Shown: in pieces, positions 1,979 to 23,567 of the stretch
Layout of the letters: each line of letters begins with the position of its first letter
How positions within the stretch are numbered: position 1 is the stretch's first letter
Assembly (NCBI GenBank): GCA_043821445.1
Contig: JBDRCT010000049.1
Location: 3,872 to 67,871 of the forward strand
Origin: Candidatus Omnitrophota bacterium
Lineage (GTDB): Bacteria; Omnitrophota; Omnitrophia; Omnitrophales; Aquincolibacteriaceae
Direction: 5' to 3'
Length of the DNA: 64,000 nt
Translations under genes and position numbers: made by a program
The notes under the pieces: generated by a model
Seen by the model: the letters and a program-made list of their open reading frames with translations, nothing else
What the model was told of the DNA's origin: nothing
The model's database searches: none

Positions 1979-1987
1979 CGAGATCCT

Positions 1988-6785: not shown

Positions 6786-6915
6786 TCCAGCCTCAATTCT
6801 TATCCATCAAAGCAGAGCGGCACTCTTTTTAATCGTTATTTTTGTTACAATTAGTTTGCCAACGAAGCTGTTTGGTGCTAGAATTCGAATCGTTCACATT
6901 TTCACGAATAGTTGA

Positions 6916-7534
6916 CATGAAAAAGATTCCTCGAAGGACGATCACGCGAGTCTTGCTTTATATCCGGACCCTGGAAACTCTGACCAAGGAAAAACGCTTT
7001 TTGATTTCCTCTGGACAGCTAGCGGACATTACGGGGCTTTCGGCGGTTCAGATCCGAAAAGACATTTCGAATTTTAAGAGCGTCGGAAAGCCAAGGGTCG
7101 GCTACCGGACGGTCGAATTGAAGAAAACGCTCGAGAATTATTTGTTGCAGGACACCACGGTCCATGTGGTGTTGTTCGGGGTGGGGAACCTCGGCTCCGC
7201 GATCTTGAAATATCCGGGGTTTCATCAAGACCAGATCCGTCTGGTGGCCGCTTTTGATGTTTCGCGTCACAAGATCGGGAAAAAGATCGAGGGTGTGAAG
7301 GTATATCCGTTGGACCGGGCGCCTGAGATCATCAAGCGGGTGCATGGCGATATCGGGATCATCGCAGTCCCGGAAAAAGGCGCCCAGGAAGTGGCGGATC
7401 ACATGGTGATCTCGGGGCTGCAAAAGATCATTAATTTCGCGCCGTGTTCGGTCAGCGTACCGGCAAGGGTGCAGATCCGTAATATTGATTTTACGATCGA
7501 GTTCTTGTCGCTTTACTGTAACACTCAAAAATGA
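6916..7534 (+). CDS. rex: redox-sensing transcriptional repressor Rex
   Basis: 'TITRVLLYIRTLE...ISSGQLADITGLSAVQIRKDISNF' wHTH N-domain + 'VVLFGVGNLGSAI' Rossmann NADH-binding domain. Confidence 0.85.
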
Positions 7535-8242: not shown

Positions 8243-9280
8243 GTGATGGAAAAAGCCATTTTTCTAAAAAAATCCAAGCTGGATGATTTCCTCGGGAAGC
8301 TTTCCGAAGGTTATCGGGTCTATGTTCCCGTCAAGAAGGATGAGCAGCGCTTCTTCAGGAAATATGCCGGTCCTGCCGCGGACATCGTCATCGGCGAAAT
8401 AAGGCCTTTTGAACCGCTCAAGGCCTTTTTCACACGTTGCCGCGAAAAGGTCGCGGACGGTTTCAAGCCGGATATTCCGCATGAGAATGACAAACCCTTC
8501 GCCATCATCGGCGTCAAGGCCTGTGATCTCAAGGGGTTCAAGATCCAGGACCATGTCTTCCGGGGCCCCGATTTTCCGGATGCGTTTTACATCAAGAACC
8601 GAGAGGAGAACTTTATCGTCAGCGCGGACTGCACCTGCGCGATCGAGACTTGTTTTTGCACCGCCATGGGGATCGGCCCCCATCCGACCGAAGATTTCGA
8701 CATCAACCTCTCCGTGATCGAGGCCGGTTTTTGGGCGGATCCCGGTTCCGAAAAAGGCAGGGAATTTATCCGGAAAAATCCGTCCCTGTTCGAGCCGGCG
8801 ACGGATACACAACTTCGTGAGAAAGAAGCGCAACGGGAAAAAATCTTTCACGAGGTGGAGGGTAATGTCAGCCGGAACGAAATTCCAAAACAGGATCATT
8901 TCCAAGGCATTATCGAGCGGAATTTCAACGCCGATCTTTGGGCGGACGAAGCGAAGACCTGTGTCGAATGCGGGGCCTGTACGGTCATTTGTCCGACATG
9001 TCACTGTTTTTTGCTTTATGATCAGAAGGACGGTGAAAAAATGGCGCGTCTGCGCACCTGGGATTCCTGCATGCTCAAGGGATATGCCCGGGTCGCGGGC
9101 GGCGGGAATCCACGCGATAAATTGTTCATGCGCCTCCGGAACCGTTTTGAAAAAAAATTTGATTTTTTCCCAAAGGCCATAAATATTTATGCCTGTACCG
9201 GATGCGGCCGTTGCGTGAGCGCGTGTCCGGCGACGATCGATATTCGCAAAGTCCTAAGAAGGCTCGTGGACCATGCATAA
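8243..9280 (+). CDS. AsrA/HydB-like iron-sulfur subunit of NAD(P)H input module
   Basis: 345 aa; cysteine motifs 'CTCAIETCFC', 'CVECGACTVICPTC', 'CTGCGRCVSACP'. Confidence 0.55.
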   Translation: MMEKAIFLKKSKLDDFLGKLSEGYRVYVPVKKDEQRFFRKYAGPAADIVIGEIRPFEPLKAFFTRCREKVADGFKPDIPHENDKPFAIIGVKACDLKGFKIQDHVFRGPDFPDAFYIKNREENFIVSADCTCAIETCFCTAMGIGPHPTEDFDINLSVIEAGFWADPGSEKGREFIRKNPSLFEPATDTQLREKEAQREKIFHEVEGNVSRNEIPKQDHFQGIIERNFNADLWADEAKTCVECGACTVICPTCHCFLLYDQKDGEKMARLRTWDSCMLKGYARVAGGGNPRDKLFMRLRNRFEKKFDFFPKAINIYACTGCGRCVSACPATIDIRKVLRRLVDHA

Positions 9281-10094
9281 CGAAAATATTTACCGCCCCA
9301 TTCGGGCCGACGTGCTCGATGTGATCACGGAAACGCCTACCATCAAAACGATCCGTTTTAAACCGGCGGAGCCTATCTCATTCAGGACGGGGCAATTTGT
9401 GGAGATCACGGTTCCGGGCGTCGGTGAGGCACCGTTTACACCGTCCTCCAAGCCTTCAATCAAGGATACGATGGAAGTGAGTGTGATGAGGGTCGGGAAG
9501 GTAACACAGAAGATCCACGAGCTCAAAAAAGGCGATGTGATCGGCGTGCGCGGTCCATTCGGGGCGGGTTATCCCGTGGATCAATTCAAAGGAAAAGACC
9601 TGTTGATTGTGGGGGGAGGATGCGGTTTTGCGCCGCTCCGCAGTCTCATGTATACCCTTTTTGAGATGAGCGGGGAATTCAAGAGGTTCTATTTTCGCGG
9701 CGGTTGCAAACTTCCGACTGAATTTCTTTACCGCAAGGAGATCGAAACCTGGCAAGAGCGGAAGGACTTGAACCTCCGGCTCACGGTCGATAGGGGTGAT
9801 GAATCCTGGAAAGGAAATGTCGGTGTTGTGACGACCATTCTGAACGATCTGGATATGGATTTCAAAACCGGTATTGCCGTAGTTTGCGGCCCGCCGATCA
9901 TGATGAAATTCGGGACCAAGAAACTTCTCGAACTAGGGTTCCGGGAAGAGAACATCTACCTTTCGATGGAAAAAAACATGTCCTGCGGCCTTGGGAAGTG
10001 CGGCCACTGCCGTCTCGGGACTTATTACGCTTGCAAGGACGGGCCGGTTTTTCCCTACGCCAAGATCAAAACATTTCACGAGATCTGGGACTGA
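9273..10094 (+). CDS. AsrB/HydG(gamma)-like FAD/NAD(P)-binding oxidoreductase with C-terminal 2Fe-2S
   Basis: 273 aa; 'RTGQFVEI' FAD motif, 'LLIVGGGCGFAPLRS' NAD motif, C-terminal 'CGLGKCGHCRLG...C'. Confidence 0.65.
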   Translation: MHNENIYRPIRADVLDVITETPTIKTIRFKPAEPISFRTGQFVEITVPGVGEAPFTPSSKPSIKDTMEVSVMRVGKVTQKIHELKKGDVIGVRGPFGAGYPVDQFKGKDLLIVGGGCGFAPLRSLMYTLFEMSGEFKRFYFRGGCKLPTEFLYRKEIETWQERKDLNLRLTVDRGDESWKGNVGVVTTILNDLDMDFKTGIAVVCGPPIMMKFGTKKLLELGFREENIYLSMEKNMSCGLGKCGHCRLGTYYACKDGPVFPYAKIKTFHEIWD

Positions 10095-10095
10095 T

Positions 10096-10662
10096 ATGGA
10101 TAAGAGCGCGGAACAATTGCACCAGGGGAAAATAAATATGAGCCCGCAGAAGGGTCCGGACCAGCGGCTTTTCATCGATCTGGACGTTTGTTCGGCGGGG
10201 CAGTGCAAGGACTGCGTGATCCAGTGCAGTTATTATTATCACCGGTCAGGAGTGGGGAATAACGGGATCATCGGCTGTGCGGAGCTTGCGACTTATGTGC
10301 TTGTCTGCCGCCGGTGCGAAATGCCGCATTGTGTGAATGCATGTCCTTATGAAGCGTTGGAGCAGCAAAAGGAAAAAGGGAAACTGCTGATCCGGCACAG
10401 CATACGCTGCGTTGCCTGCAAATCCTGTTCGCACGCGTGCCCCTACGGAGCAATCTATCCGGAGAACCTCCCGCCATTGATCCACAACTGTGATTTTTGT
10501 CTGGACCGGAGGGACGACGCGAACGAACCGTTGTGCGTTAAGACCTGTTCTCACGGTGCTTTAAGTCTCAAAAGTGGGAACATACCGCTGGATGAGAAAA
10601 CTTTTTTGGTAGGGGACAATCTGATCGTCCATTCGACGCATTGGAAGTGGGAAAAAGCATGA
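10096..10662 (+). CDS. 2x[4Fe-4S] ferredoxin-like electron-transfer subunit (HycB-like)
   Basis: 'CRRCEMPHCVNACP', 'CVACKSCSHACP', 'CDFCLDRR' motifs. Confidence 0.6.
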   Translation: MDKSAEQLHQGKINMSPQKGPDQRLFIDLDVCSAGQCKDCVIQCSYYYHRSGVGNNGIIGCAELATYVLVCRRCEMPHCVNACPYEALEQQKEKGKLLIRHSIRCVACKSCSHACPYGAIYPENLPPLIHNCDFCLDRRDDANEPLCVKTCSHGALSLKSGNIPLDEKTFLVGDNLIVHSTHWKWEKA

Positions 10663-11582
10663 TGTATCTATTCTATTTCATCATGTTCGGATTTCTGGCA
10701 ACAGCCACGCTGGGTTTAGCAGCCAGCTGGATCGACCGTAAGGTTACCGCCCGGGTGCAATACCGCGTGGGACCGCCGCTTTTTCAGCCCCTGATTGACA
10801 TCGTGAAACTTTTAGGGAAAGAAACGCTTGTTCCGGCAGGGGCATCGCGAGTCGCTTTTTTTGCAGCGCCGGTTGTGGGACTCGCGAGCGTAATGCTTGC
10901 CTCGACTTTGCTTTGGATGAATGACATAAACTGGACCCGGACGTTCATCGGAGATCTGATCGTGGTGCTCTATTTATTGATGATCCCTTCGATCAGCATC
11001 ATGATGGGAGGGTTTGCGTCAAGGAATCCTCTGGCGAGCCTGGGTGCCTCCCGCGAAATGAAATTGATTTTAAGTTACGAACTTCCTTTTCTGCTTGCCG
11101 TGCTCGTCCCGGTCATTAAGTCCGGTTTTTCGATCCGGCTCGGAGATATGATGATCGCGCAGGCACAGGACGGGATCTTCGCGGCAAGCTGGTCGGGTGC
11201 CCTGGCGTTTGTGGTGTGCGTCCTTTGTGCGCAAGCGAAGCTCGGTCTTGTTCCTTTTGACATCGCGGAGGCTGAAACGGAGATCATGAGCGGGCCCTTG
11301 ATCGAATATTCCGGTTCAGGGCTTGCCATTTACCGCTTGATGAAAAACATGCTTTTATTCGTCCTCCCGTTCTTTCTGATGATCCTTTTCATGGGAGGGG
11401 CGCGGTGGGACGGGATCCATTTATTGTATGGGATCTTGAAATATGTCGGTTTGGTCGCGCTGATCACGGTGATCCGGAACACGAATCCCCGCGTCAGAAT
11501 CGATCAGGCCATCCGGTTTTTTTGGAGGCCGGTGACGGTCATGGCCATTATGGCCGTTGTGTTGGCAGTGGGGGGGTTGTAA
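10641..11582 (+). CDS. group 4 hydrogenase membrane subunit (NuoH/HycD/MbhM-like)
   Basis: 313 aa polytopic protein with NuoH-like architecture directly upstream of NuoB/C/D-like subunits. Confidence 0.65.
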   Translation: MEVGKSMMYLFYFIMFGFLATATLGLAASWIDRKVTARVQYRVGPPLFQPLIDIVKLLGKETLVPAGASRVAFFAAPVVGLASVMLASTLLWMNDINWTRTFIGDLIVVLYLLMIPSISIMMGGFASRNPLASLGASREMKLILSYELPFLLAVLVPVIKSGFSIRLGDMMIAQAQDGIFAASWSGALAFVVCVLCAQAKLGLVPFDIAEAETEIMSGPLIEYSGSGLAIYRLMKNMLLFVLPFFLMILFMGGARWDGIHLLYGILKYVGLVALITVIRNTNPRVRIDQAIRFFWRPVTVMAIMAVVLAVGGL

Positions 11583-11583
11583 G

Positions 11584-12027
11584 ATGAGCATAAAATTAAA
11601 GGCGTTACTCAGCGCGCCTTGGGTCTTCCACATGTCGACTGGCAGCTGCAACAACTGTGATATCGAGATCCTGGACTGCCTGACGCCTCGATTCGACGTA
11701 GAACGGTTCGGCATGCTGCTTGCGGGTAGTATCAAGCATGCCGATGTCCTGCTTGTAACGGGATCAATGAATCGGAAATGCATTTCAAGGGTCAAGCGGG
11801 TCTATGAGCAAATGCCGAAGCCCTGTCTTGTGGTCGCGATCGGCGAATGCTCGCTTTCACGGGGCATGTTCATCCACAGCTACAACTGTCCTGTGCCGGT
11901 CGATAAGATCATTCCGGTGGATGTTTACATTCCCGGATGCCCGCCGAAACCGGAAGCGATCATTGCGGGTGTGGTCAAACTGATCGGAAAAGTAAAAAGC
12001 GGAATAGGAAAGAAGAAAAAGAAATGA
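11584..12027 (+). CDS. [NiFe] hydrogenase small subunit (NuoB/MbhJ-like)
   Basis: 'CNNCDIE...GSMNRKC...GECS...IPGCPPKPEAI' four-Cys proximal-cluster pattern typical of group 4 small subunits. Confidence 0.8.
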   Translation: MSIKLKALLSAPWVFHMSTGSCNNCDIEILDCLTPRFDVERFGMLLAGSIKHADVLLVTGSMNRKCISRVKRVYEQMPKPCLVVAIGECSLSRGMFIHSYNCPVPVDKIIPVDVYIPGCPPKPEAIIAGVVKLIGKVKSGIGKKKKK

Positions 12028-12497
12028 CGCGCGAAGAAATTTTGAAGGACCTGAAAGAGGAGTTTAAAGGGGATATCGTCGACATTTTCGAGAAATCACC
12101 CAAGCGGGTCTATGTCGAGATCCGGCCCGGGGCGCTCGTGAAGATCGCGACCCATATCTTCAAAGGTCTGAAAGCAAGATTCAATATCGCAACAGGGACC
12201 GACCTGCGCCACTCCATGGAAATTCTTTATCACTTTACCCTTGATGACATCAACTTGGTGGTCTCCCTCAGGGTGAAATTGACGAAGCCGGATTTGGAGG
12301 TCGATTCCCTGACGCCGGTCTTCAAAGGGGCTGATTGGATCGAACGGGAGATCCATGAACTTTTGGGGATCCGTTTCAAAAATCACCCCAATTTAAAAAG
12401 ACTCCTATTGTCCGAAGAATGGCCCGAGGGTGTTTATCCTTTAAGGCAGGATTATAAAGAGTGGGATAAAAAAGCCATTCGGGACCGGGGAGTTTAG
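12024..12497 (+). CDS. hydrogenase NuoC-like (30 kDa) subunit (MbhK-like)
   Basis: size/position and NuoC-like sequence; ATG inside upstream stop region. Confidence 0.65.
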   Translation: MTREEILKDLKEEFKGDIVDIFEKSPKRVYVEIRPGALVKIATHIFKGLKARFNIATGTDLRHSMEILYHFTLDDINLVVSLRVKLTKPDLEVDSLTPVFKGADWIEREIHELLGIRFKNHPNLKRLLLSEEWPEGVYPLRQDYKEWDKKAIRDRGV

Positions 12498-12499
12498 AC

Positions 12500-13681
12500 A
12501 TGGCAAAAACGATCGTTCCCATAGGGCCCTATCATCCACTACAAGAAGAACCCGAATTTTTCACCCTGACAGTGGAAGGCGAACGGGTGGTGGAGATAGA
12601 TGTTCAGATCGGATACAACCACCGCGGAATCGAGAAGATCTCCGAGACGAAAACATTCGATCAGTCTACCTTCGCCGTCGAGAGAATATGCGGCATCTGT
12701 TCCACGAGCCATCCCGCGGCGTATACGCTGGCAGTGGAAGATATTATTCCGGTAGAGGTCCCTGAACGCGCGAAATACATTCGGACCATTGTCGCGGAAG
12801 GCGAGCGGATCCATTCACACCTTTTATGGCTCGGACTCGCGGGCCATTTCCTCGGCTACAACACGGTCTACATGTGGGCGTGGAAATTGCGCGAAGAGGT
12901 CCTGGACGTGATGGAGATCCTGTCCGGGAACAGGAATAACTACGCGATGTTCAAACCGGGCGGTGTCAGGCGCGATATCAAAGCCGAGGATATCCCCGGC
13001 GTTTTGAAGAAGATCGATTCCATCGTGCCTACCCTTCAAATGCTCCAGAAGGCCGTGATGGACGATCCCGTGCTTCATGCGCGTACCAAGGGCATTGGAG
13101 TCCTGACCAAAGAAGATGCCATCAGTTATTCTGCCCTTGGACCGACGGCGCGGGCGTCCGGTATCGCGCGCGACGTGCGCAAGGACTCCCCCTACGCTTC
13201 CTACGATAAGGTCGCATGGGACATGATTGTCCGGCATAACGGTGATGTCTTTGATAAATTAGTGATCCGTGTTCTCGAAACTTTCGAATCGATCAAGATC
13301 ATAAAATATTGCCTTACGAATTTGCCAAAAGGCGAGATCGACCTCAAGATCAAAAGTTTTCCGATCGGGGAAGGGATCGGTCACGTCGAGGCGCCGCGTG
13401 GCGAATGCTTTCATTATGTCAAAAGCGACGGAACGAACCGGCCGCTGCGCCATAAAATAAGGGCGCCGACTTACATGAATCTTCCGACTTATAAATCGAC
13501 CATTATGGGTCAAACGATTTCGGATGCGACGATCATCCTCGCGGCGATCGATCCTTGTTATTGCTGCACTGAGAGGATGGCCGTACGCGACGGAAAAGGG
13601 AAAAAACTTTTTACTGGCGAAGACCTCATCCGGCTTTCGCAGGAAAAAACCGAGAAACTCAGGGAAAAGTATGGACGCTAG
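12500..13681 (+). CDS. group 4 [NiFe] hydrogenase large subunit (NuoD/MbhL/EchE-like)
   Basis: N-terminal 'RICGICSTSHPAAY' (RxCGxCxxxH) and C-terminal 'DPCYCCTERM' (DPCxxC) Ni-Fe ligand motifs; 393 aa. Confidence 0.85.
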   Translation: MAKTIVPIGPYHPLQEEPEFFTLTVEGERVVEIDVQIGYNHRGIEKISETKTFDQSTFAVERICGICSTSHPAAYTLAVEDIIPVEVPERAKYIRTIVAEGERIHSHLLWLGLAGHFLGYNTVYMWAWKLREEVLDVMEILSGNRNNYAMFKPGGVRRDIKAEDIPGVLKKIDSIVPTLQMLQKAVMDDPVLHARTKGIGVLTKEDAISYSALGPTARASGIARDVRKDSPYASYDKVAWDMIVRHNGDVFDKLVIRVLETFESIKIIKYCLTNLPKGEIDLKIKSFPIGEGIGHVEAPRGECFHYVKSDGTNRPLRHKIRAPTYMNLPTYKSTIMGQTISDATIILAAIDPCYCCTERMAVRDGKGKKLFTGEDLIRLSQEKTEKLREKYGR

Positions 13682-15326
13682 CGGAACGTTTTTTAGATCA
13701 GATCCTCTTTCGGCTTTTGTGGCATTCTTTATTGTCTTCTTTTCCCTCCTGACAATATTTTATTCCTTAGGTTTCATGCGAGGAAAGAAGGGACTGCTTT
13801 GGTATTATCTTTATCTTATTCTCACGCTTGCCGCTTCGCTCGGTGCCGTGTTCGCCAATAATCTTGTGTTATTCATGGTATTTTGGGGAGTTCTGGGGTT
13901 CCTCCTTTATCTTTTGATCGGATTTGGAGAAAAAGAACGCACCCCTGCGACCGCCAAGAAGACATTTATCATCATCGGTGGCACGGATGCCTTGATGCTT
14001 CTCGGTCTTGCGCTTGTCTGGCAGCTGACAGGTTCGTTCCAGATGGACAAAATGAGCATCGCCTTGAATTCCAAGCTTGCCGTTTGGGCTTACCTGTGCT
14101 TTGCGGCCGGCGCATTCGCCAAAGCAGGTGCCATGCCGTTCCATACCTGGATCCCGGACACCGCCGAAGACGCACCGACGCCGGTCACGGCTTTCTTGCC
14201 GGCATCGCTTGATAAACTTTTAGGGATCTATTTTCTTGCCCGGCTTTCGTTGAGCATGTTCCAGATGAACGGGCCGATGAACACCTTTTTAATGGCGGTC
14301 GGAGCTTTTACGATCGTGGCGGCCGTTATGATGGCGCTCGTCCAACATGATCTGAAGCGGTTGCTCGGGTATCATGCCGTGAGCCAGGTCGGCTACATGG
14401 TGCTGGGGATCGGCACGGGAAATCCTATCGGGATCGCCGGCGGATTGTTTCATATGCTGAATAATGCAGTCTATAAAACCTGTCTGTTCCTGACGGGGGG
14501 GGCCGTCGAAAAGAAAACAGGGACGACCGACCTGGACAAACTCGGCGGTTTGGCAAAGATCATGCCGGTGACTTTCATTACATTTTTGATCGCGGCATTC
14601 GCTATTTCCGGTGTTCCGCCATTTAACGGTTTTGCTTCCAAATGGCTCATTTATCAGGGAATTATCGAGACAGCGAACAAAACCCGATATTTATGGATCG
14701 TGTGGCTGGTCGCGGCTATGTTCGGAAGCGCGCTGACGCTGGCAAGCTTCATGAAGCTGGTCCATGCTATTTTTTTAGGTCAGACATCCAAGGAAATGAA
14801 CCTAGCGGAAAACCAGAAAAAAGAAACCGGATTTACCATGTGGGTCCCGGCCGTTATCCTCGCGTTTCTTTGCGTCCTTTTCGGGGTCTTTTTTTATCCG
14901 ATCCCTCTAAAAATGTTCATTATCCCAAGCCTTGGGATGAATATTGAAAACTTCGGGATGTGGGATGCGGGCCTGGCGACGATTTTGATCTTCGTTGGCA
15001 TTTTGGTCGGGTTTGTGATCTACCTTTTAGGCGCGGCCGTAAAACCCAGGGAAGCCGAGGTCTTTGTCGGCGGGGAGGACTTGAAAGATCATCCGGATAT
15101 GAGAATTTCCGGGACGGAGTTCTACCGGACCGTTGAGGACATGAAGATCTTGAAACCGGTTTATCAGCTGGCAAAGGAAAAGGCCTTTGATCCCTACGAG
15201 GTGGGGGCGAAGCTCACGTTCGGTTTCAGTAAATTTTTATCCTATCTCCACAACGGCATCCTGCCGACTTATTTGGTCTGGTGCCTTTTGGGGATGGGCA
15301 TCTTATTTTACATTTTTCTGAGGTAG
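13671..15326 (+). CDS. Mrp/NuoL-like antiporter subunit (MbhH-like)
   Basis: ~550 aa polytopic, NuoL/M/N-MnhA family sequence ('HAWLPDA'-type region 'PFHTWIPDTAED'). Confidence 0.7.
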   Translation: MDASGTFFRSDPLSAFVAFFIVFFSLLTIFYSLGFMRGKKGLLWYYLYLILTLAASLGAVFANNLVLFMVFWGVLGFLLYLLIGFGEKERTPATAKKTFIIIGGTDALMLLGLALVWQLTGSFQMDKMSIALNSKLAVWAYLCFAAGAFAKAGAMPFHTWIPDTAEDAPTPVTAFLPASLDKLLGIYFLARLSLSMFQMNGPMNTFLMAVGAFTIVAAVMMALVQHDLKRLLGYHAVSQVGYMVLGIGTGNPIGIAGGLFHMLNNAVYKTCLFLTGGAVEKKTGTTDLDKLGGLAKIMPVTFITFLIAAFAISGVPPFNGFASKWLIYQGIIETANKTRYLWIVWLVAAMFGSALTLASFMKLVHAIFLGQTSKEMNLAENQKKETGFTMWVPAVILAFLCVLFGVFFYPIPLKMFIIPSLGMNIENFGMWDAGLATILIFVGILVGFVIYLLGAAVKPREAEVFVGGEDLKDHPDMRISGTEFYRTVEDMKILKPVYQLAKEKAFDPYEVGAKLTFGFSKFLSYLHNGILPTYLVWCLLGMGILFYIFLR

Positions 15327-15330
15327 AGCC

Positions 15331-15882
15331 ATGCTTTCGTTATATCTGCTTTTGGCCTTGATGATTATCGGAGCGATCGTTGCCATTGAGCTCAAAGATA
15401 TGCTTTCTTCGGCGGTGGCCGTGGGTGCGGTCGGACTCATTCTTTCCATCACGTTCCTTATGTTAAAGGCCCCGGATGTGGCCATTACCCAGCTTGTCGT
15501 GGAAATTTTATGTTTGATCATTCTGATCCGGGCGACCTTGAAAAAGGATCTTCCGTTCTCGATCACCGGCAGATGGTATTTGAACACTTTGGTCACAGGC
15601 TGTTTTATCGTTTTGTTCCTGTCGATCGCGATGAAGGCCTGCGCCGATCTTCCGCCTTTTGGTTATCCCATTATGAAGGTGGCGGAAACTTATTTGCGGG
15701 AAGGACTGCCGAAGACGGGCGCCGCCAATATCGTCGCCGCCGTCATCCTGGATTACAGGGCTTATGACACCCTGGGAGAAGCGACCGTGCTGTTTACGGC
15801 GGTGATCGGTGTTTTGGCGATCGTGCGTCGTATCGGCAGAAAACGGGAAGATACCGTTATCACGGATGAAGATGAGTCATAA
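15331..15882 (+). CDS. Mrp antiporter MnhB-like subunit
   Basis: 'NIVAAVILDYRAYDTLGEATVLFTAVIGV' MnhB signature. Confidence 0.65.
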   Translation: MLSLYLLLALMIIGAIVAIELKDMLSSAVAVGAVGLILSITFLMLKAPDVAITQLVVEILCLIILIRATLKKDLPFSITGRWYLNTLVTGCFIVLFLSIAMKACADLPPFGYPIMKVAETYLREGLPKTGAANIVAAVILDYRAYDTLGEATVLFTAVIGVLAIVRRIGRKREDTVITDEDES

Positions 15883-15894
15883 AAGGAGGGCCCC

Positions 15895-16347
15895 ATGAGC
15901 CGCGAGCAACAAGAGGGCATGTCCGTCATCGTCAAGACGATCACACGTCTTACCGTAGGGCTCATCCTGCTTTATGGGATCTACATTCTCAGCCACGGGC
16001 ATGTGTCGCCCGGCGGCGGGGGGGCGGGCGGCGTCATCATCGCGCTTTCTTTTGTCCATTTGATGCTTGCCTACGGTAAGGAGACAGCTTTTAAAAAGAT
16101 CCCCAAGGCGGCTGTTTCGTTCTTTGAGGGCATGGGCGCCATCATCTTTTTGGCGATCGCTTTGTTCGGGTTTACCAGCGGATACTTTTTCTTGAATTTC
16201 ATCTCCAAAGGGGAACCCTTCCGTTTGTTCAGCGCCGGGATCATCCCTTTGTGCAATATCGCGATCAGCTTGAAAGTGGGCGCCGGTCTTTTCGCGATCT
16301 TTGTCGCCTTAGTATTGCTAAAATTCGAATCGGAGCACAAACAATGA
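15895..16347 (+). CDS. small polytopic membrane subunit of the Mbh/Mrp module
   Basis: 150 aa, 3-4 TM helices, operon position. Confidence 0.4.
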   Translation: MSREQQEGMSVIVKTITRLTVGLILLYGIYILSHGHVSPGGGGAGGVIIALSFVHLMLAYGKETAFKKIPKAAVSFFEGMGAIIFLAIALFGFTSGYFFLNFISKGEPFRLFSAGIIPLCNIAISLKVGAGLFAIFVALVLLKFESEHKQ

Positions 16348-16682
16348 CGGCCTACATCCTTTGTCTCATGTTGTTCTGCGTGGGCATTTACGGTGTGATA
16401 AGAAAACGTAATATCATCAAGATTATTATCGGGACGATCATCGCGGAATATGCCGTGAACTTGTTTTTTATTTTGGTGTGCTACCGCATGAAGGGACGCG
16501 CCCCCATTTTTTCGCCGGACCAGTCGATCACGAACATGGTCGACGCGCTCCCGCAGGCGCTTGTTCTAACCGCCATCGTCATCGGGCTTGCGACGACCGC
16601 CATGCTGGTGGCGATCGCCATGCGGATCTATGAAAAATACGGCACCTTCGACATTACCAAGATCAGGGAGTTAAGAGGATGA
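16344..16682 (+). CDS. MnhC/NuoK-like subunit
   Basis: 112 aa, 3 TM; ATGA start/stop overlap with upstream gene. Confidence 0.55.
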   Translation: MTAYILCLMLFCVGIYGVIRKRNIIKIIIGTIIAEYAVNLFFILVCYRMKGRAPIFSPDQSITNMVDALPQALVLTAIVIGLATTAMLVAIAMRIYEKYGTFDITKIRELRG

Positions 16683-18178
16683 GCGGTCTCGTGAACCTCC
16701 TACCGTTATTTGTGGTCGTGCCGCTGGGCGGGGCTTTTTTGACCACGATCATCGGCCGCCGGGTGAAGCGGCTGCCGGACCTTGTAGGCGTGATCGCGAC
16801 CTTTTGCCTGTTCTGTTTTTCCGTCTGGGCGGTCGCTATCGTCAAACAACACGGCGTCCTTGTTTATAGCGTCGGCGCGTGGAGACCGCCGGTGGGCATC
16901 ACCCTTGTTTTGGACGCTTTGACCTCGTTCATGCTGGTGACGGTGAACACGGTCGTCTTTCTGATCGCGGTCTATTCGGTCCGGTATATGGAGCACTTTA
17001 CTTCAAAATGGAAGTTCTTCACGCTTTTTCTGTTGTTGGTAGGGGGGATGAACGGCGTGATCATTACGGGCGATCTGTTCAATCTGTTCGTGTTTTTGGA
17101 GATCGCGGCGGTCGCCAGCTATGCTCTGGTGGCCTTTGGGACTGAAAAGTACGAACTTGAAGCGGCGTTCAAATACGGCGTGATGAGTTCCGTCAGCTCG
17201 CTTTTTATCCTTTTGGGGATCGCATTCCTCTACGCCTATACCTCCACCCTGAACATGGCGGACATGGCGGCGGTTCTGTCAAAGAAGGGCCCAAACGAGA
17301 TCATCCCGATGGTATCGATCTTATTTATCATGGGGTTCGGCCTGAAGGCGGCCCTCGTTCCTTTTCACGCGTGGCTTCCGGACGCGCATCCTTCGGCCCC
17401 GGCGCCTATCTCTGCGACGCTTTCCGGCGTTCTGATCAAATCCCTTGGAGCGTATACGATTTGCAGGATCTTTTTTAATGTGATCGGATTCAGCGAAGGG
17501 GTTTCTTATGTTTTATTGGTCCTGGGAACGCTTTCCATGGTCGGGGGGGTGTTTTTAGCCGTTGGGCAATGGGACTTCAAAAGGCTTCTTGCCTATCACT
17601 CCATCAGTCAGATGGGTTATGTCATCCTGGGCATCGGCTTGGGGACGCCGCTCGGGATCCTGGGGGGCCTTTTCCATCTTTTCAACCATTCCATATTTAA
17701 ATCACTGCTTTTCTTGAACTCAGGGGCCGTGGAGTATGCCACCGGCACCCGGGACCTTCAGCGCATGGGCGGTCTTTTTAAGAAAATGCCTGTGACCGGC
17801 ACCACCAATCTTATTGCATCGATGTCGATCGCCGGCATACCGCCTTTCAACGGTTTTTGGAGCAAGCTTCTGATCATCGTGGCGTGCGTGCAGGCCGGCC
17901 GGTACGGTTTTGCTTTTTGGGCCGTATTTGCCAGCATTTTGACCCTCGCTTCTTTTATGAAAGTGATGAAATATGTTTATTACGGGAAGCTGCCCAAGGC
18001 ATTGGCCGATACGAAAGAAGTTCCCGGCTTGATGAAATTCGCCATGGTGGTCTTAGCATTTATTTGCGTGATCGGCGGACTTTTGTTCCTTCCCGGCGTT
18101 GCCGGGACGTTCCTTCAACCGGCAACGGCCGTTCTTTTGAAAGGGGTCGGGTATGCCCATTTACCCTTCATTCCATGA
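16679..18178 (+). CDS. MnhD/NuoM-like antiporter subunit
   Basis: 499 aa; 'PFHAWLPDAHPSAP' conserved NuoM/MnhD motif. Confidence 0.7.
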   Translation: MSGLVNLLPLFVVVPLGGAFLTTIIGRRVKRLPDLVGVIATFCLFCFSVWAVAIVKQHGVLVYSVGAWRPPVGITLVLDALTSFMLVTVNTVVFLIAVYSVRYMEHFTSKWKFFTLFLLLVGGMNGVIITGDLFNLFVFLEIAAVASYALVAFGTEKYELEAAFKYGVMSSVSSLFILLGIAFLYAYTSTLNMADMAAVLSKKGPNEIIPMVSILFIMGFGLKAALVPFHAWLPDAHPSAPAPISATLSGVLIKSLGAYTICRIFFNVIGFSEGVSYVLLVLGTLSMVGGVFLAVGQWDFKRLLAYHSISQMGYVILGIGLGTPLGILGGLFHLFNHSIFKSLLFLNSGAVEYATGTRDLQRMGGLFKKMPVTGTTNLIASMSIAGIPPFNGFWSKLLIIVACVQAGRYGFAFWAVFASILTLASFMKVMKYVYYGKLPKALADTKEVPGLMKFAMVVLAFICVIGGLLFLPGVAGTFLQPATAVLLKGVGYAHLPFIP

Positions 18179-18687
18179 GACCAGATAAAATAAACAGCAG
18201 GATCATTCTTTTTATCGTTGCTTTTTTAACGTGGTGTGTTTTGAACTGGCCGCCGGACTGGCAGCACCTTTTGGTAGGTTTTTTTGTGGCGGCATTTGTC
18301 ACCTATATGATCGGCGATCTTTATGTTTCTGTGCCGAGTATTTTTAAACAACCCCAGCGGTATTGGTATTTTGCGGCCCATTATCTCCCGCTTTTCATCT
18401 TGGAGTGCATCAAGGCGAACATTGATGTTGCCTACCGTGTTTTGCATCCTCAATTACCGATCAAGCCGGGGATCGTACGGATCAAGACAAAACTCAAGAC
18501 CGACACGGGGCTGACATTTTTGGCCAATACGATCACCCTGACGCCCGGGACCATGTGTGTGGATATCGATCGGGATCGCGGCATTTTATATATCCATTGG
18601 ATTCATGTGGACGCGCAGGAAGCAGAGAAGGCGACACAACTGATCGCGGGAAAATTCGAAACGATACTGGCGAAAATATTTGGATAA
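18175..18687 (+). CDS. MnhE-like subunit
   Basis: 170 aa, N-terminal 2 TM, ATGA overlap with upstream gene. Confidence 0.5.
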   Translation: MRPDKINSRIILFIVAFLTWCVLNWPPDWQHLLVGFFVAAFVTYMIGDLYVSVPSIFKQPQRYWYFAAHYLPLFILECIKANIDVAYRVLHPQLPIKPGIVRIKTKLKTDTGLTFLANTITLTPGTMCVDIDRDRGILYIHWIHVDAQEAEKATQLIAGKFETILAKIFG

Positions 18688-18705
18688 GCAGGAAGGGAAA
18701 GGAAG

Positions 18706-19074
18706 ATGAAAATGCTCAGGTGGTTCATAGGCACGGTGGCTCTTGCCGGCACCGTGGCACTCATTATCATTTATCCGCTCCCGTTTTTGTTCTATCCCGA
18801 TCTTCCCCATGTTGGATTTGTCGGCAGGGCCCTCTATATCGTTATTTTAAGCTGCTTCCTTTGTTTTTACAGGATCGCACGGGGGCCTTCGGGCGCCGAC
18901 CGGATCGTCGCGGTCGATATTCTGGGGATCATGCTCGTGGGTTTATGCGCAGTGCTCACCATTGCAACACGTCGTTCCTGGTATATTGACATCGGCATTG
19001 CCTGGGCCCTGCAAAGCTTCATCAGCACACTCGCGCTTTCCAAGTATCTGGAAGGAAAGGATTTCGATGAATGA
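18706..19074 (+). CDS. MnhF-like subunit
   Basis: 122 aa, 3 TM, operon position. Confidence 0.45.
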   Translation: MKMLRWFIGTVALAGTVALIIIYPLPFLFYPDLPHVGFVGRALYIVILSCFLCFYRIARGPSGADRIVAVDILGIMLVGLCAVLTIATRRSWYIDIGIAWALQSFISTLALSKYLEGKDFDE

Positions 19075-19402
19075 GACCCTTGGCTTAGTATTGATCGGCA
19101 TCGGGTTGGCCTTTGACCTTTTTGGGTGTCTAGGGCTTATCCGTCTTCCCGACGTTTATAACCGTCTGCAGGCGGCGACGAAATGCGTCACCGTAGGAAC
19201 TTGCAGCATTCTTTTTGGGACTTTTCTGATCATGGGATTTACCGCCGCAGGGCTGAAATCGATCTTGTGCATATGGTTTCTGGTCTTGGCTTCCCCCGTG
19301 GCAGCCCATGCCTTGGCGAGAGGCGCCCATCGTGCCGGTATTAAACTTTGGGAAAAAAGCGTGGTGGACCAGTATGCCGAGGACGGGGAAGGAAAAAAAT
19401 AA
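19067..19402 (+). CDS. MnhG-like subunit
   Basis: 'LGLVLIGIGLAFDLFGCLGLIRLPDVYNRLQAATK' MnhG signature. Confidence 0.6.
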   Translation: MNETLGLVLIGIGLAFDLFGCLGLIRLPDVYNRLQAATKCVTVGTCSILFGTFLIMGFTAAGLKSILCIWFLVLASPVAAHALARGAHRAGIKLWEKSVVDQYAEDGEGKK

Positions 19403-19405
19403 ATC

Positions 19406-20023
19406 ATGAGATTTCCATTACCGAAACTCCGGGAAGTGGTCGAGGCGGTGAAGGCGCTTATCGTAGGGCCTTACACCTCGAAGTTTCCTAAGGAACCACA
19501 TGTGCCGCATCCTAATTTCCGCGGCCAGCCCAAGTATAACGAGCAAAAATGCGTGGGCTGTCTAGCGTGTGTCGAGGTTTGTCCCGTCCAGGCACTCGAT
19601 TATAAAGATGACACCAGCGATCCTAAAGCGGCTAAAAGAACCATGATCCATTACACGGACACCTGCATTTTCTGCAGTCAGTGTGAGGCGGCTTGCATTG
19701 CGGACCATCAGGGGATCAAGGCCTCCACAGATTGGGAACTCTCCTTTTTCGACCGGAAAGCGGCATTCGAAACGATCGAGAAAGAATTGCAGCTTTGCGA
19801 GATTTGCGGAGTGACGGTCGCTTGCAAGGATCATTTGAAATGGATTGCCGAAAAACTCGGAGAATTATCCTATTCCAGCCCCACACTTTATCAATCACGT
19901 CTTCAGGACCTCGGGGTCATCGATGAGAATCTCAAGTCCGCATTGAAAGACAACGGCCGTTCCGATCGTGTCAAGATCCTCTGCGCGCCGTGCCGCCGGA
20001 AGACAACGCTCACGACCGAATAA
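19406..20023 (+). CDS. 2x[4Fe-4S] ferredoxin subunit (NuoI/MbhN-like)
   Basis: 'CVGCLACVEVCP' and 'CIFCSQCEAAC' motifs. Confidence 0.6.
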   Translation: MRFPLPKLREVVEAVKALIVGPYTSKFPKEPHVPHPNFRGQPKYNEQKCVGCLACVEVCPVQALDYKDDTSDPKAAKRTMIHYTDTCIFCSQCEAACIADHQGIKASTDWELSFFDRKAAFETIEKELQLCEICGVTVACKDHLKWIAEKLGELSYSSPTLYQSRLQDLGVIDENLKSALKDNGRSDRVKILCAPCRRKTTLTTE

Positions 20024-20057
20024 ACCAATATTGCTTTTTCTTGGGATCCCGGCCAAT

Positions 20058-20519
20058 ATGGAAGATCTTTTAATCCCCATTCTCAAAGGAAAGACCGTGA
20101 TCGTCGGCATCGGGAACCCGCTTCGCGGGGACGATGGTGTTGGGCCGTACCTTGTGGAAATTCTCCAGGGTAGGGTCAATGCTGTTTGTATCGATGCCGG
20201 GACGGCGCCCGAAAGTTACATCGGAAAGATTTTGAAGGAGTTCCCGGATACGGTACTGATCGTGGATGCCGTACACCTAGGGCTTGAGGCGGGCGCGTGT
20301 CAGGTCCTGGAGGGGGACGAGATCTTGAAAAGCGGTCTTACCACCCATGACCTTTCGCCGCGGATGTTCATGGACCATCTGAGGCAGGGAAGCAGGGCCC
20401 GGATCTACATGCTGGGGGTTCAGCCCCAAAGGGTCCTCTTCGGGGACGCTATGTCCGGATCGGTAAAAAAAACAACGGAACAACTGGCCGCAGCAATTAC
20501 GGAGGTGCTGGGTGCATGA
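20058..20519 (+). CDS. hycI: hydrogenase maturation endopeptidase (HycI/HyaD family)
   Basis: 'VIVGIGNPLRGDDGVGPYLVEIL' signature. Confidence 0.75.
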   Translation: MEDLLIPILKGKTVIVGIGNPLRGDDGVGPYLVEILQGRVNAVCIDAGTAPESYIGKILKEFPDTVLIVDAVHLGLEAGACQVLEGDEILKSGLTTHDLSPRMFMDHLRQGSRARIYMLGVQPQRVLFGDAMSGSVKKTTEQLAAAITEVLGA

Positions 20520-20754
20520 AACACATTTAATCGAACCGATCATCAAGGGGATCTCGGAGCACGCGAAAAAAGAGGGCGCTCGTTCCGTGTCCAAGGTCCA
20601 TATCAAGGTCGGCCTGTTGACCGGCGTCAAGGAAGAATCTTTCAGAGAAACCTTCGCGGTGCTTGCTAAGGGAACGATGCTTGAGAACGCCGAGATAGAA
20701 CTGACATTCTTTCCGGGCACCATCATCCAGATTCTTTCCTTCGCTATCGAGTAG
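20512..20754 (+). CDS. HypA-like N-terminal (Ni-binding MHE) domain, lacking the C-terminal Zn-finger
   Basis: 'MHETHLIEPIIKGISEHAKKEGARSVSKVHIKVGLLTGV' resembles HypA N-terminus; no CxxC...CxxC; 80 aa. Confidence 0.45.
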   Translation: MHETHLIEPIIKGISEHAKKEGARSVSKVHIKVGLLTGVKEESFRETFAVLAKGTMLENAEIELTFFPGTIIQILSFAIE

Positions 20755-20759
20755 ACGCC

Positions 20760-22067
20760 ATGTGCTATGCCATCCCCGGGAAGGTGAAGGAACTCAAGGG
20801 AAACGTTGCGGTCCTGGATTATTTCGGAGAGCTCCGGAGAGCACATTATGAGATGACGGATCTTCGGGTGGATGAATACGTTTATGCGCAGGGTGGTTAC
20901 GTCATCAATAAAGTCCCGCTCCGCGAGGCCGAAGAGATCCTATCAGCCTGGAAGACCATGTTCTTTGAACTCCAGGAAGTCGATCTGCGCCTGTCGCGCG
21001 CCGGGATCGAGAAGATAAGCGCGGACGCGGCGATCAAGCGGATCCTGGACAAGGCCATGGAAGGAAAGCCGCCGGCCAGGGACGAGCTGCTCTATCTGCT
21101 CAAGTGCCGCGATCGATCCACGCTTGACCTGGTCTTCAAATCCGCCAATTTCCTCCGTCAGAAATATCTTAAGAACGCCTGCTGCGTTCACGGCATTCTC
21201 GAGATCTCAAACCATTGTAGGGAAAATTGCCGTTATTGCGGGATTTCGACACACCACAAGGCCCTCACACGTTACCGCATGACCCCGGACGAGATCATGG
21301 CCGTCGCCTGTGAGGCGGTTGAAAAATATGGGTTTAAGGCGCTCGTCCTTCAAAGTGGCGAAGATCCCGGATATTCGATCGATGAATTCGCAAGGATCAT
21401 CAGGATGATCAAAGAAAAAACGCCGTGTCTTATTTTCATAAGTTTCGGCGAGATCGGTATTCCGGGTCTCCGGAAACTTCACGATGCCGGCGCGCGCGGG
21501 CTCTTGATGCGCTTCGAAACCTCGAATCCCAAACTTTACGCGGAATCCCATCCGGGCCGTTCCCTGGAAACAAGGCTCGAGCACCTCCGTAAGGCCTACG
21601 AAATGGGCTATTTGATCGTGACGGGAGGGCTGATCGGCCTGCCTGACCAGACCCTTGCGGATATCGTGGATGATATTTTTCTTGCAAAAGAACTTCACGC
21701 CGAGATGTACAGTTTTGGCCCGTTCCTTCCGCACCCCCAAACGCCTTTGGGGAAGGTCCTGCCTGTGCATGAAATTGAAATGTTGAAAGTGATTGCTGTC
21801 GCGAGACTTTTGGATCCGAAAGAAGCGAGGATCCTTGTCACCACGGCTTTCGAGACCTTGAGTCCGGACGCCCGGCGCAAAGGCCTTCTTGCCGGTGCTA
21901 ATTCTGTGATGCTTAATATCACCCCCGTAGAATATCGCGAGCGTTATGCGATCTACCCGAACCGGGTTTATGCCCACGAAACGGTCCGTAAACAGATCGA
22001 TGAGACGCTTGTCTTGTTGAAAGAACTCGGGCGCGCGCCGACGGACCTTGGCGCAAAGGTCCATTAA
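20760..22067 (+). CDS. fusion protein: N-terminal HypC/HupF-like domain + HydE/BioB-like radical SAM domain
   Basis: starts 'MCYAIPGKVKEL...VDEYVYAQGGYVI' (canonical HypC MC-x-AIP N-terminus) then 'ISNHCRENCRYCGIS' CxxxCxxC radical-SAM motif and BioB/HydE-like TIM barrel; single uninterrupted frame, 435 aa. Confidence 0.7.
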   Translation: MCYAIPGKVKELKGNVAVLDYFGELRRAHYEMTDLRVDEYVYAQGGYVINKVPLREAEEILSAWKTMFFELQEVDLRLSRAGIEKISADAAIKRILDKAMEGKPPARDELLYLLKCRDRSTLDLVFKSANFLRQKYLKNACCVHGILEISNHCRENCRYCGISTHHKALTRYRMTPDEIMAVACEAVEKYGFKALVLQSGEDPGYSIDEFARIIRMIKEKTPCLIFISFGEIGIPGLRKLHDAGARGLLMRFETSNPKLYAESHPGRSLETRLEHLRKAYEMGYLIVTGGLIGLPDQTLADIVDDIFLAKELHAEMYSFGPFLPHPQTPLGKVLPVHEIEMLKVIAVARLLDPKEARILVTTAFETLSPDARRKGLLAGANSVMLNITPVEYRERYAIYPNRVYAHETVRKQIDETLVLLKELGRAPTDLGAKVH

Positions 22068-23567
22068 ATGAAAACGGCGATCGCAAAAAATACAGATACC
22101 TGGCTCTTAGGCCGCATCAAAAAAGATGAGATCACAAAATATCTTGATCAGGGCCGTGATTTCATTGATGACGATGCGATCTGGAAAAAGATCGAAGCGG
22201 CCCGGGAGCCTGATGCATCCACCGTGCGCGCCATTCTCGCGCGTTCACTCGCCATCCAGACGCTTACACCGGAAGAGCTCGCGACTCTGATTCATGTGAA
22301 GGATCCCGGCATGCTTCGCGAAATGCAAGAAGCCGCCCTTGCGATCAAGAAAAAAGTCTATGACAACCGGATCGTTACTTTCGCGCCGCTTTATATGGGA
22401 AATTATTGCGTCAATAACTGCGCCTATTGCGGATTCAAGCATGAAAATCTCAGCACGAAGCGCCGCGTCCTTTCACAGGACGAGATCCGTAGGGAAACTG
22501 AAAGCCTGACGGGAAAGATCGGCCACAAGCGCATTATCGCGGTCTACGGAGAGCATCCGCTGACCGGGATCGATTATATCCTTGAAAGCATGAAGACGAT
22601 CTACGACGTGAGGGTACCGACCAAGCACGGTTTCGGCAATATCCGTCGTATCAATGTGAATGCCGCGCCGATGTCGATCGAAGAGCTCGTTCGTCTCAGG
22701 GACGGCGGCCTTGGGACTTATCAGGTGTTTCAGGAAACCTACCATCATGAGACCTACGCAAAACTTCATCCGAAAGGGACACTCAAATCCGATTATCGCT
22801 GGCGGCTCTATGCCATGCATCGCGCGATGGAAGCGGGGATCAATGACGTGGGGATCGGGGTCCTGTTCGGGCTTTATGATTGGCGTTTTGAAGTGATGGC
22901 GCTTCTTTATCACGCGATCCACCTTGAGGCCAAGATGGGGATCGGTCCCCATACGGTATCATTCCCGCGTATGGAGCCGGCGCTCAACTCTGAATACGCC
23001 GAACATTCCCCCTATAAAGTATCCGACGAGGATTTCAAGAAGATCATCCTGCTCATCCGTCTCGCCATTCCTTACACGGGCATGATCATTACGGCGCGGG
23101 AGACTGCCCAGATGCGGCGTGATGCGATCGGTCTCGGGATCACACAGACCGATGCTTCCACTAAGATCGGGATCGGAAGTTACAGCGAAGAGGGAAAGGG
23201 CCAGGAATCCGAACGTCAGCAGTTCCTGTTGGGCGACACCAGAAGTTTGGATGAATTAGTCCGGGATTTCGCGGCAATGGGGCACATTACTTCCTTTTGC
23301 ACCGCAGGATATCGTTGCGGCAGGACGGGCAAATGTATTATGGACCTCTTGCGCGGCGGCCAGGAAGGGAAGTTCTGCAAACTGAACGCTGTGCTGACCT
23401 TTCAGGAATGGCTGGATGATTTCGCCACTCCCGCGACGCGTGAAGTAGGGCTCCGGGTGCTGGAAAAAGAACTTGAAGAGATCAAGGTAAGAAATCCCCA
23501 GGGGTTCCCGGTCTTTTATCAATTTCTTGAACGTATTCGCAAAGGGGAGAGAGATCTGTTCCTTTAG
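22068..23567 (+). CDS. HydG/ThiH-family radical SAM enzyme
   Basis: 'GNYCVNNCAYCGF' CxxxCxxC; C-terminal extra cysteines 'FCTAGYRCGRTGKC...FC' as in HydG-type; 499 aa. Confidence 0.65.
   Translation: MKTAIAKNTDTWLLGRIKKDEITKYLDQGRDFIDDDAIWKKIEAAREPDASTVRAILARSLAIQTLTPEELATLIHVKDPGMLREMQEAALAIKKKVYDNRIVTFAPLYMGNYCVNNCAYCGFKHENLSTKRRVLSQDEIRRETESLTGKIGHKRIIAVYGEHPLTGIDYILESMKTIYDVRVPTKHGFGNIRRINVNAAPMSIEELVRLRDGGLGTYQVFQETYHHETYAKLHPKGTLKSDYRWRLYAMHRAMEAGINDVGIGVLFGLYDWRFEVMALLYHAIHLEAKMGIGPHTVSFPRMEPALNSEYAEHSPYKVSDEDFKKIILLIRLAIPYTGMIITARETAQMRRDAIGLGITQTDASTKIGIGSYSEEGKGQESERQQFLLGDTRSLDELVRDFAAMGHITSFCTAGYRCGRTGKCIMDLLRGGQEGKFCKLNAVLTFQEWLDDFATPATREVGLRVLEKELEEIKVRNPQGFPVFYQFLERIRKGERDLFL

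Follow-up and report, generated by a model that had tools for sequence, protein, structure and literature searches.

A HypC–HydE fusion protein encoded beside [NiFe] hydrogenase genes in Omnitrophota: a candidate link between the two hydrogenase maturation chemistries

Introduction

Which hydrogenase is served by a protein that joins a maturation factor of the [NiFe] enzymes to one of the [FeFe] enzymes? This question is raised by a 64,000-nucleotide stretch (the window) of contig JBDRCT010000049.1, part of the metagenome-assembled genome of an uncultured Candidatus Omnitrophota bacterium, in which a single open reading frame (ORF) encodes a HypC domain followed by a HydE-like radical S-adenosylmethionine (SAM) barrel. 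Canonical HypC is a small chaperone with an oligonucleotide/oligosaccharide-binding (OB) fold; it binds the Fe(CN)2CO unit through its N-terminal Cys2 and delivers it to the apo large subunit. HydE, to our knowledge, is known only from iron-iron hydrogenase assembly. Directly behind the fusion lies a gene for HydG, the enzyme that makes CO and CN- from tyrosine, and the locus as a whole suggests that the [NiFe] catalytic centre may be assembled by a previously undescribed route that starts from tyrosine.

A 2025 review of [NiFe]-cofactor biosynthesis treats the anaerobic source of CO as the field's most urgent problem, and HydG and radical SAM enzymes do not appear in it. The locus provides a concrete candidate, in which a specialised HydE connects HydG genetically with the carrier from which [NiFe] enzymes receive their iron unit. 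A first-pass annotation of the window had known of no characterised system with such a fusion. The searchable full-text literature, which leaves most subscription journals uncovered so that a prior description is possible, likewise yielded no paper on the fusion or on a link between HydE or HydG and [NiFe] maturation. The architecture itself is already present in databases, since NCBI carries such proteins as 'radical SAM protein', 'HypC/HybG/HupF family chaperone' or 'HydE' and JGI as 'biotin synthase'; NCBI entry MFH1801053.1 is identical to the protein of the window.

Results

Two maturase domains in one reading frame

The fusion and its parts are laid out as follows.

20760..22067, plus strand: HypC::HydE-like fusion, 435 residues, ATG start, zero internal stops
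20760..20951, plus strand: HypC domain, residues 1-64, with Met-Cys2 (MCYAIPGK) and Gln44
20949..20999, plus strand: interdomain connector WKTMFFELQEVDLRLSR, residues 64-80, within predicted helix 54-79
21036..22043, plus strand: HydE-like radical SAM barrel, residues 93-428, 'HFG' subtype
21216..21239, plus strand: radical SAM CX3CX2C motif CRENCRYC, residues 153-160

The first-pass annotation had read this ORF as HypC running in frame into a BioB/HydE-like barrel, and both halves proved to be what it had taken them for when they were searched separately. Residues 1-66 matched Thermococcus kodakarensis HypC (phmmer, E = 1e-9), and residues 93-428 matched Thermotoga maritima HydE (E = 1.7e-66) at about 40% identity. 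Pfam assigned HupF_HypC to residues 1-64 with 46.8 bits (gathering score 28.5; a scan restricted to residues 1-82 gave 51 bits), Radical_SAM to residues 148-307 and BATS to residues 323-404. The best NCBIfam family was HydE (TIGR03956), which matched residues 103-407 with 236 bits and narrowly missed its equivalog cut-off of 254.6; other two-domain fusions reached 228-247 bits, also below it, and the canonical HydE of locus L012 scored 359 bits. Membership of the barrel in PylB, BioB or HmdB was rejected on NCBIfam scores far below the cut-offs.

An AlphaFold2 model of the fusion, built with 50 homologues, had a mean predicted local distance difference test (pLDDT) score of 90.4 and a whole-chain predicted template modelling (pTM) score of 0.89. 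From N to C terminus it consists of a five-stranded barrel, a single long helix (residues 54-79) and the HydE barrel. In Foldseek, the modelled HydE barrel aligned to T. maritima HydE with a template modelling (TM) score of 0.93, normalised to the target, and a root-mean-square deviation of 1.5 Å.

The same fusion recurs widely. Both Pfam domains were found in 119 of the 120 best clusters at 90% identity (59-100% identity, 97-100% coverage), and 23 fusion loci, including one on a closed 1.52-Mb chromosome, turned up in a genome set with a single representative for each GTDB species; these species representatives are labelled Omnitrophota or, for auto-named bins, other taxa. A metagenome scan returned at least 532 relatives, and all 80 loci kept from it were fused. 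Exhaustive search of 50%-identity representatives produced about 15-20 fused clusters and then ordinary HydE proteins of 330-360 residues at 47% identity or less. The totals, at least 119 protein clusters and at least 114 independent loci, are lower bounds, and all fusion sequences come from uncultured organisms. An artefact of assembly or annotation (a frameshift, or a chimeric contig joining two genes) has nothing in its favour and can be dismissed, because the uninterrupted fusion recurs across these independent assemblies, the closed chromosome included, with a conserved connector.

HydE-like radical SAM proteins of about 440 residues (P0181, P0182, P0210 and P0217) carry an N-terminal putative Se/S-carrier domain, PF11823, in place of HypC. 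In this second family, too, a HydE-type barrel has a small carrier domain attached.

The HypC domain keeps Cys2 and has lost the HypD-facing histidine

The N terminus had been called canonical HypC, which is correct for its hallmark and too strong for the domain as a whole. Its MC-x-x-x-P signature is present, the motif MC-x-x-I-P-G is near-invariant among fused HypC domains, and Cys2 is kept in 132 of 134 aligned fusions and in all 77 further metagenome copies. Against the NCBIfam HypC model (TIGR00074, cut-off 48), it scored below the cut-off, at 34.0 bits with the full fusion and 38.6 bits with the domain alone. A conserved HypC histidine (E. coli H51, T. kodakarensis H45) is also missing: it is replaced by Gln44 in 129/134 fusions and in 77/77 of the further copies. 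This histidine sits in the cavity between HypC and HypD (PMC11565642).

In the AlphaFold2 model the HypC domain has five strands in residues 7-52 and a helix at residues 54-79 (pLDDT 76-93), which corresponds to a barrel with a C-terminal helix. The connector from W64 to R80 is strongly conserved, with W64, F68, F69, D75 and S79 nearly invariant. As it is both conserved and predicted to be helical, the tether between HypC and HydE is predicted to be structured rather than a loose linker.

The fused HydE has a remodelled product site

In HydE (T. maritima numbering), M224 and M291 hold Fe(I)(CO)2(CN)S units, and the cyanides of the Fe(I) product are contacted by R54, T134, R155 and T269, in or close to the S3 site; hydrogenases mature less well when a conserved residue of this site is mutated (PMC11826987, PMC10114646). 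In the fusion of the window, R54, T134 and R155 are replaced by H144, F226 and G247. Position 54 is His in all 134 fused domains, position 134 is Phe or Cys (rarely another residue), and position 155 is Gly or Ala. The original residues prevail among 101 unfused HydE representatives (R54 in 89, T134 in 86, R155 in 87). By contrast with these three positions, C63/C67/C70, M224, M291, T268/T269, L157, V105 and K309 (K/R) are kept across the fusions. The window copy retains M316/M384 (M224/M291), T361/T362 and R402 at the position of K309, where K or R is found family-wide. Another 77 metagenome copies follow the same pattern of substituted and kept residues. The HydE-like barrel retains the full set of residues needed to cleave SAM and bind the synthon.

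A simple neighbour-joining tree, which carries no support values, was calculated without the three signature columns; all 29 HFG sequences fell into one clade together with two near-variants. Both types of HydE meet at loci L012/L044, in which genes for HydF, HydG and a canonical HydE closely precede a group-3 [NiFe] operon whose last gene is the fusion. This canonical HydE is 52.5% identical to T. maritima HydE and 38% identical to the fused domain of the same locus. At L026, a partial second, unfused HydE lies beside HydG, beyond an [FeFe] hydrogenase. In all, canonical HydE accompanies the fusion in two genomes, one of which has HydF as well. The fused HydE is a separate paralogue, a distinct subfamily with a remodelled product site.

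HydE of the HFG type also occurs unfused. In L037 and L039-41 the [NiFe] large-subunit gene overlaps it at the stop codon and HydG comes next; no [FeFe] genes were found in these minimal operons. The example in L039 (5190..9504; also L037 and L040-41) runs Pyr_redox_2, a 162-residue small subunit, a 431-residue large subunit, HFG-HydE and HydG; protease, HypA and HypC were absent from an 18-kb contig with an operon of this type. In L038 (4766..7208) the HFG-HydE/HydG pair stands alone on an archaeal-looking contig with an archaeal histone gene, and both the 5 kb before it and the 8.6 kb after it are free of hydrogenase genes.

[NiFe] hydrogenase genes adjoin the fusion

We surveyed 114 fusion loci (1.55 Mb, up to 10 kb on either side of each fusion). 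Eighty-one of these loci span at least 8 kb, and only five of them (L081, L094, L097, L101 and L105) had no adjoining [NiFe] genes. In the others these genes are either of the group-4 Mrp type or of group 3 (Fer4_22, FAD/NAD, small subunit, large subunit); here and below, subgroup labels such as 4g and 3b follow published assignments or the subunits present. The commonest order is hydrogenase, HycI, short HypA, fusion, and in some loci the fusion stands ahead of the operon. HydG follows in many loci, either directly or after an intervening Rex gene.

Queries with E. coli HypB, HypD, HypE and HypF found no match in the 1.55 Mb around the 114 fusions. The same HypD and HypE queries detected archaeal homologues at 5.5e-79 and 5.7e-67, so the missing HypD and HypE matches do not reflect a limit of sensitivity. 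No stand-alone HypC-like N-terminus was present in the 41 loci scanned for one.

Three lineages, independently of one another, encode HypC, HydE and HydG in a single polypeptide, each time beside [NiFe] genes:

P0122, 906 residues: after a group-3 operon and HycI
P0129, 881 residues: inside a group-3 cluster that also has an 84-residue HypA
complete chromosome CP070797.1, 921 residues: after a group-4 operon, HycI and short HypA

By Rosetta-stone logic, these triple fusions indicate that the activities of HypC, HydE and HydG belong to one process. A further protein, P0142, is a HydE-HydG fusion without HypC.

The fusion of the window closes a group-4 operon and abuts HydG

The genes around the fusion are given below.

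6842..7534, plus strand: Rex-type redox-sensing regulator (PF06971 and PF02629)
8243..10662, plus strand: three genes, Fer4_22, FAD/NAD-binding (DHODB Fe-S) and Fer4_11 (Pfam), directly before the hydrogenase genes
10641..20023, plus strand: structural genes of an Mrp/Mbh-type group-4 [NiFe] hydrogenase (Pfam)
within 10641..20023, plus strand: NuoH-like, 30-kDa subunit, MrpA/D-like, MbhD/E, MnhB/C/E, MrpF/G and NuoI-like ferredoxin genes
11557..12027, plus strand: [NiFe] small subunit (Pfam)
12500..13681, plus strand: [NiFe] large subunit, with RICGICSTSH (12683..12712) and a DPCYCC motif
19968..20519, plus strand: HycI-type maturation endopeptidase (TIGR00142, 114.9 bits; PF01750)
20512..20754, plus strand: short HypA, 80 residues (PF01155, profile positions 1-70 of 112)
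22068..23567, plus strand: HydG tyrosine lyase (TIGR03955, 463 bits, cut-off 312; HydG structure 4WCX, E = 5e-135)
22407..22430, plus strand: HydG radical SAM motif CVNNCAYC
23298..23378, plus strand: HydG C-terminal variant cluster motif CTAGYRCGRTGKC-x13-C, residues 411-437 (canonical, CX2CX22C)

The [NiFe] operon context that had been proposed for the fusion is borne out by these genes. All group-4 traits are present: the L1 and L2 cysteine motifs, Mrp-type membrane subunits, and a 34-residue C-terminal tail of the large subunit behind its CTER motif (DPCYCCTER), together with the HycI protease. The true start of HycI is probably the ATG at 20058 (MEDLL). HycI and HypA overlap by 8 nucleotides, HypA and the fusion are 5 nucleotides apart, and the TAA of the fusion abuts the ATG of HydG; such spacing is typical of an operon. 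A promoter and terminator scan around the genes of the fusion locus gave matches no more frequent than chance. The short HypA keeps the N-terminal (M)HE nickel motif and lacks the zinc-finger CxxC motifs; this 80-residue form is conserved in L001, L003, L017 and many other loci, with no HypB nearby. Queries with E. coli HypB, HypD, HypE and HypF and with HydA found no match in the window. HydF was covered by a motif scan of the loci, which matched L012 only; no search for it was aimed at the window itself.

HydG of the window has an unusual C-terminal motif, C-x5-C-x5-C-x13-C, in which the second Cys of CX2C has become Gly and new Cys residues appear at +6 and +12. The variant is shared by L001-3, L007, L008, L012, L014 and L017, and the canonical motif is found in L018, L020, L022, L024-26, L033-36 and L037-39. 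The variant is probably a working HydG, because it stands beside HydF and canonical HydE in L012/L044.

Discussion

A candidate [NiFe]-dedicated maturation module

We give an even chance to the reading that the fusion is the centre of a maturation module dedicated to [NiFe] hydrogenase, in which HydG and the HydE variant would pass an Fe-CO/CN unit to the tethered HypC. On whether the module consists of short HypA, the HypC::HydE variant, HydG and HycI, with radical SAM chemistry borrowed from [FeFe] H-cluster assembly, our judgement is equally balanced. In favour of this reading are the synteny with [NiFe] genes, the triple fusions, the paralogy with canonical HydE and the residue substitutions, the unfused HFG-HydE/HydG pair behind a [NiFe] subunit gene, a HypC that keeps Cys2 and has lost the His, the absence of HypB, HypD, HypE and HypF near the 114 fusions and the conserved helical connector. 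Also consistent with it are published Omnitrophota metagenome-assembled genomes (MAGs) whose sole hydrogenase is a group-4g [NiFe] enzyme (PMC8542988).

The first-pass annotation had proposed that the fusion couples radical SAM chemistry to the carrier of the iron cofactor. This proposal is supported by the triple fusions, the remodelled paralogue, the helical connector and the synteny; the chemical coupling itself would follow a scheme whose reactions are all extrapolated from characterised families. It would proceed as follows: 1) HydG would cleave tyrosine and build an Fe-cysteine-CO/CN synthon; 2) the HydE-like barrel would process the synthon by attack of a 5'-deoxyadenosyl radical on the cysteine sulphur; 3) the resulting mononuclear Fe(CO)x(CN)y fragment, instead of being held or dimerised at S3 for HydF, would be captured by Cys2 of the tethered HypC, as the remodelled S3 site and the rigid tether suggest; 4) HypC would load the iron unit into the apo large subunit; and 5) nickel would enter via the short HypA, after which HycI would cleave the C-terminal tail. 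The HydE barrel would thereby take over the scaffold role of HypD, and HydG would replace ligand synthesis by HypE and HypF, at least for CO.

Evidence for possible service to the [FeFe] enzyme

Several observations weigh against a module dedicated to [NiFe] hydrogenase, among them the minority of loci in an [FeFe] maturation cluster, on which the first-pass annotation was silent, as it was on the neighbouring HydG and the lost histidine. The known product of HydG carries (CO)2(CN), not (CN)2(CO), so that ligand exchange has to be assumed for the [NiFe] unit. HydA of a bifurcating [FeFe] hydrogenase lies within 10 kb of the fusion in 14/114 loci and HydF in 4/114; with an [FeFe] enzyme so close, HydE and HydG could serve it instead. 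L081 (1..8729) and L082 are the clearest counter-example to a purely [NiFe] association. Their cluster comprises HydA, an FMN reductase, DUF6941, the fusion, a HATPase_c protein, an ammonia-lyase-type Lyase_1, HydF and HydG; no other HydE was found on these contigs, and here the fusion may act simply as HydE. Finally, of three Omnitrophota genomes examined from Seymour 2023, one, '231', has HypA, C, D, E and F and Mrp and no BioB- or ThiH-like KEGG Orthology (KO) assignments.

These observations bring up the strongest competing explanation, in which the two halves of the fusion are chemically independent. HypC would act in a HypCDEF pathway encoded elsewhere and HydE with HydG and HydF for an [FeFe] enzyme, and the sole purpose of joining the maturases would be their common expression, controlled by Rex, in organisms with both types of hydrogenase. 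We consider this possible, though clearly on the improbable side. It would account for the several loci in which a bifurcating [FeFe] hydrogenase lies 2-4 kb downstream of the fusion with Rex between, for the L081/L082 cluster, for the retained catalytic residues of HydE and for at least one published Omnitrophota genome with HypA, C, D, E and F. It does not explain why a fused paralogue is kept beside the [NiFe] operon despite a canonical HydE (and, in L012/L044, HydF), or why each of the fused copies has other residues at product-site positions that matter in [FeFe] maturation. The triple fusions and the unfused HFG-HydE/HydG pair adjoin [NiFe] genes in loci with no [FeFe] genes; moreover, the HypC domain has lost its HypD-facing His, and no HypD is adjacent in the 114 loci. 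As weak evidence in the same direction, none of the best 120 HydA relatives lies on the 1.52-Mb, 848-kb or 599-kb contigs with group-4-type fusions, whereas the same 120 included the known co-located contigs of 127175, 34079 and 19404 bp.

Published genome surveys bear on the issue only anecdotally. The other two genomes examined from Seymour 2023 have BioB-like KOs and no Hyp; the pattern of the three genomes fits a complementary distribution of the two systems. Maturase terms were not found in the supplements of Williams et al. 2021.

It is unlikely that the fusion serves [FeFe] maturation alone, with the HypC-like domain recruited to carry the HydE product or to serve as its adaptor, in part replacement of HydF, and a place beside [NiFe] genes that reflects shared regulation (a component to which we assign the same low probability). 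The L081/L082 context fits such a role, and so do the PF11823 proteins, whose existence indicates that carrier fusions to a HydE-type barrel recur. Yet the fusion follows the [NiFe]-specific HycI and HypA in most loci, group-4-only Omnitrophota MAGs have been reported (PMC8542988), and the Met-Cys-x-x-x-Pro N-terminus that marks HypC is intact.

A branch-point model, in which one HydG and one mononuclear synthon would be routed either via HydF to the [FeFe] enzyme or via HypC to the [NiFe] enzyme, would reconcile the facts that favour the [NiFe]-dedicated module with those that favour the bifunctional fusion. A more far-reaching version of the dedicated module, which we put forward tentatively and hold to be less probable than its failure, is that HydG, HFG-HydE and HypC form a self-contained, tyrosine-fed route to the [NiFe] Fe-carbonyl-cyanide unit without HypD, HypE or HypF. 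Its parts are present as two- and three-domain fusions in Omnitrophota and as separate proteins in some small-genome bacteria. If true, the [NiFe] cofactor would be made by two pathways independent of each other, anaerobes would have a defined source of CO, and the [NiFe] active site might differ in its CO/CN ratio.

Comparison with known maturation systems

The fusion resembles the HypC/HybG-HypD scaffold of E. coli and T. kodakarensis in its MC-x-x-x-P N-terminus, in a HypC domain that scores above the Pfam threshold, and in its place in a [NiFe] operon with protease and HypA. It differs in that HypC is covalently attached to a radical SAM barrel rather than partnered with HypD, that the cavity His is Gln and the score below the NCBIfam HypC cut-off, and that HypD, HypE and HypF were not detected near any of the 114 loci. 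In green-algal HydEF, HydE is joined to HydF, the carrier or scaffold that receives the HydE product. HydEF and the HydE-HydG protein P0142 are thus precedents for joining H-cluster maturases that pass on intermediates; however, the carrier in HydEF is HydF and the target an [FeFe] hydrogenase, whereas the carrier here is the [NiFe]-specific HypC.

With T. maritima HydE (PDB 3IIZ/7O1O), the barrel shares the fold, CX3CX2C, M224/M291, T268/T269 and a HydG neighbour. It differs in the replacement of R54/T134/R155 in every fused copy, and in forming a separate clade with an N-terminal HypC that can coexist with canonical HydE. HmdB/HcgA of [Fe]-hydrogenase cofactor synthesis offers another case of a HydE/BioB-like radical SAM enzyme tied to a non-[FeFe] hydrogenase; the fusion is not an HmdB member, since it scores 79.6 bits on TIGR03957 against a cut-off of 320.9. 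HypX, the aerobic CO-ligand synthase of [NiFe] hydrogenases, uses formyl-tetrahydrofolate (PMC6802093; review PMC12134894). The role proposed for the fusion is similar to that of HypX in being an accessory supply of diatomic ligands to HypC-bound iron outside HypDEF. By contrast, HypX has an unrelated fold and works under oxic conditions, and the candidate ligand source here is tyrosine, via HydG, in anaerobes.

If the [NiFe]-dedicated module exists, both great hydrogenase classes would share a supply of organometallic building blocks, and the protease, short HypA, fusion and HydG might suffice to mature [NiFe] hydrogenases heterologously. Even if the fusion is only bifunctional, the HFG-HydE clade is an unstudied natural variant with a rebuilt product site, and it bears on where Fe(I) units dimerise in H-cluster assembly.

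Other features of the window

The trio of genes at 8243..10662 is probably an electron-input module. Its members resemble the beta and gamma diaphorase subunits of soluble group-3b hydrogenases, and the order Fer4_22, FAD/NAD, Fer4_11 beside group-4 genes recurs in L066, L098 and L109-113. As this diaphorase-like trio stands ahead of a membrane-bound Mrp-type group-4 hydrogenase, the arrangement suggests a pyridine-nucleotide-linked, ion-translocating hybrid complex.

Far from the hydrogenase genes, two class-I synthetase genes of the Glu/Gln-tRNA type lie side by side at 237..3676, and in its best stretch the first of the two ORFs covers no more than the C-terminal portion of the catalytic-domain profile. 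At 35223..52631 (plus strand), a single ORF of 5802 residues is in line with the giant genes of Omnitrophota (bioRxiv 10.1101/2023.11.21.568195).

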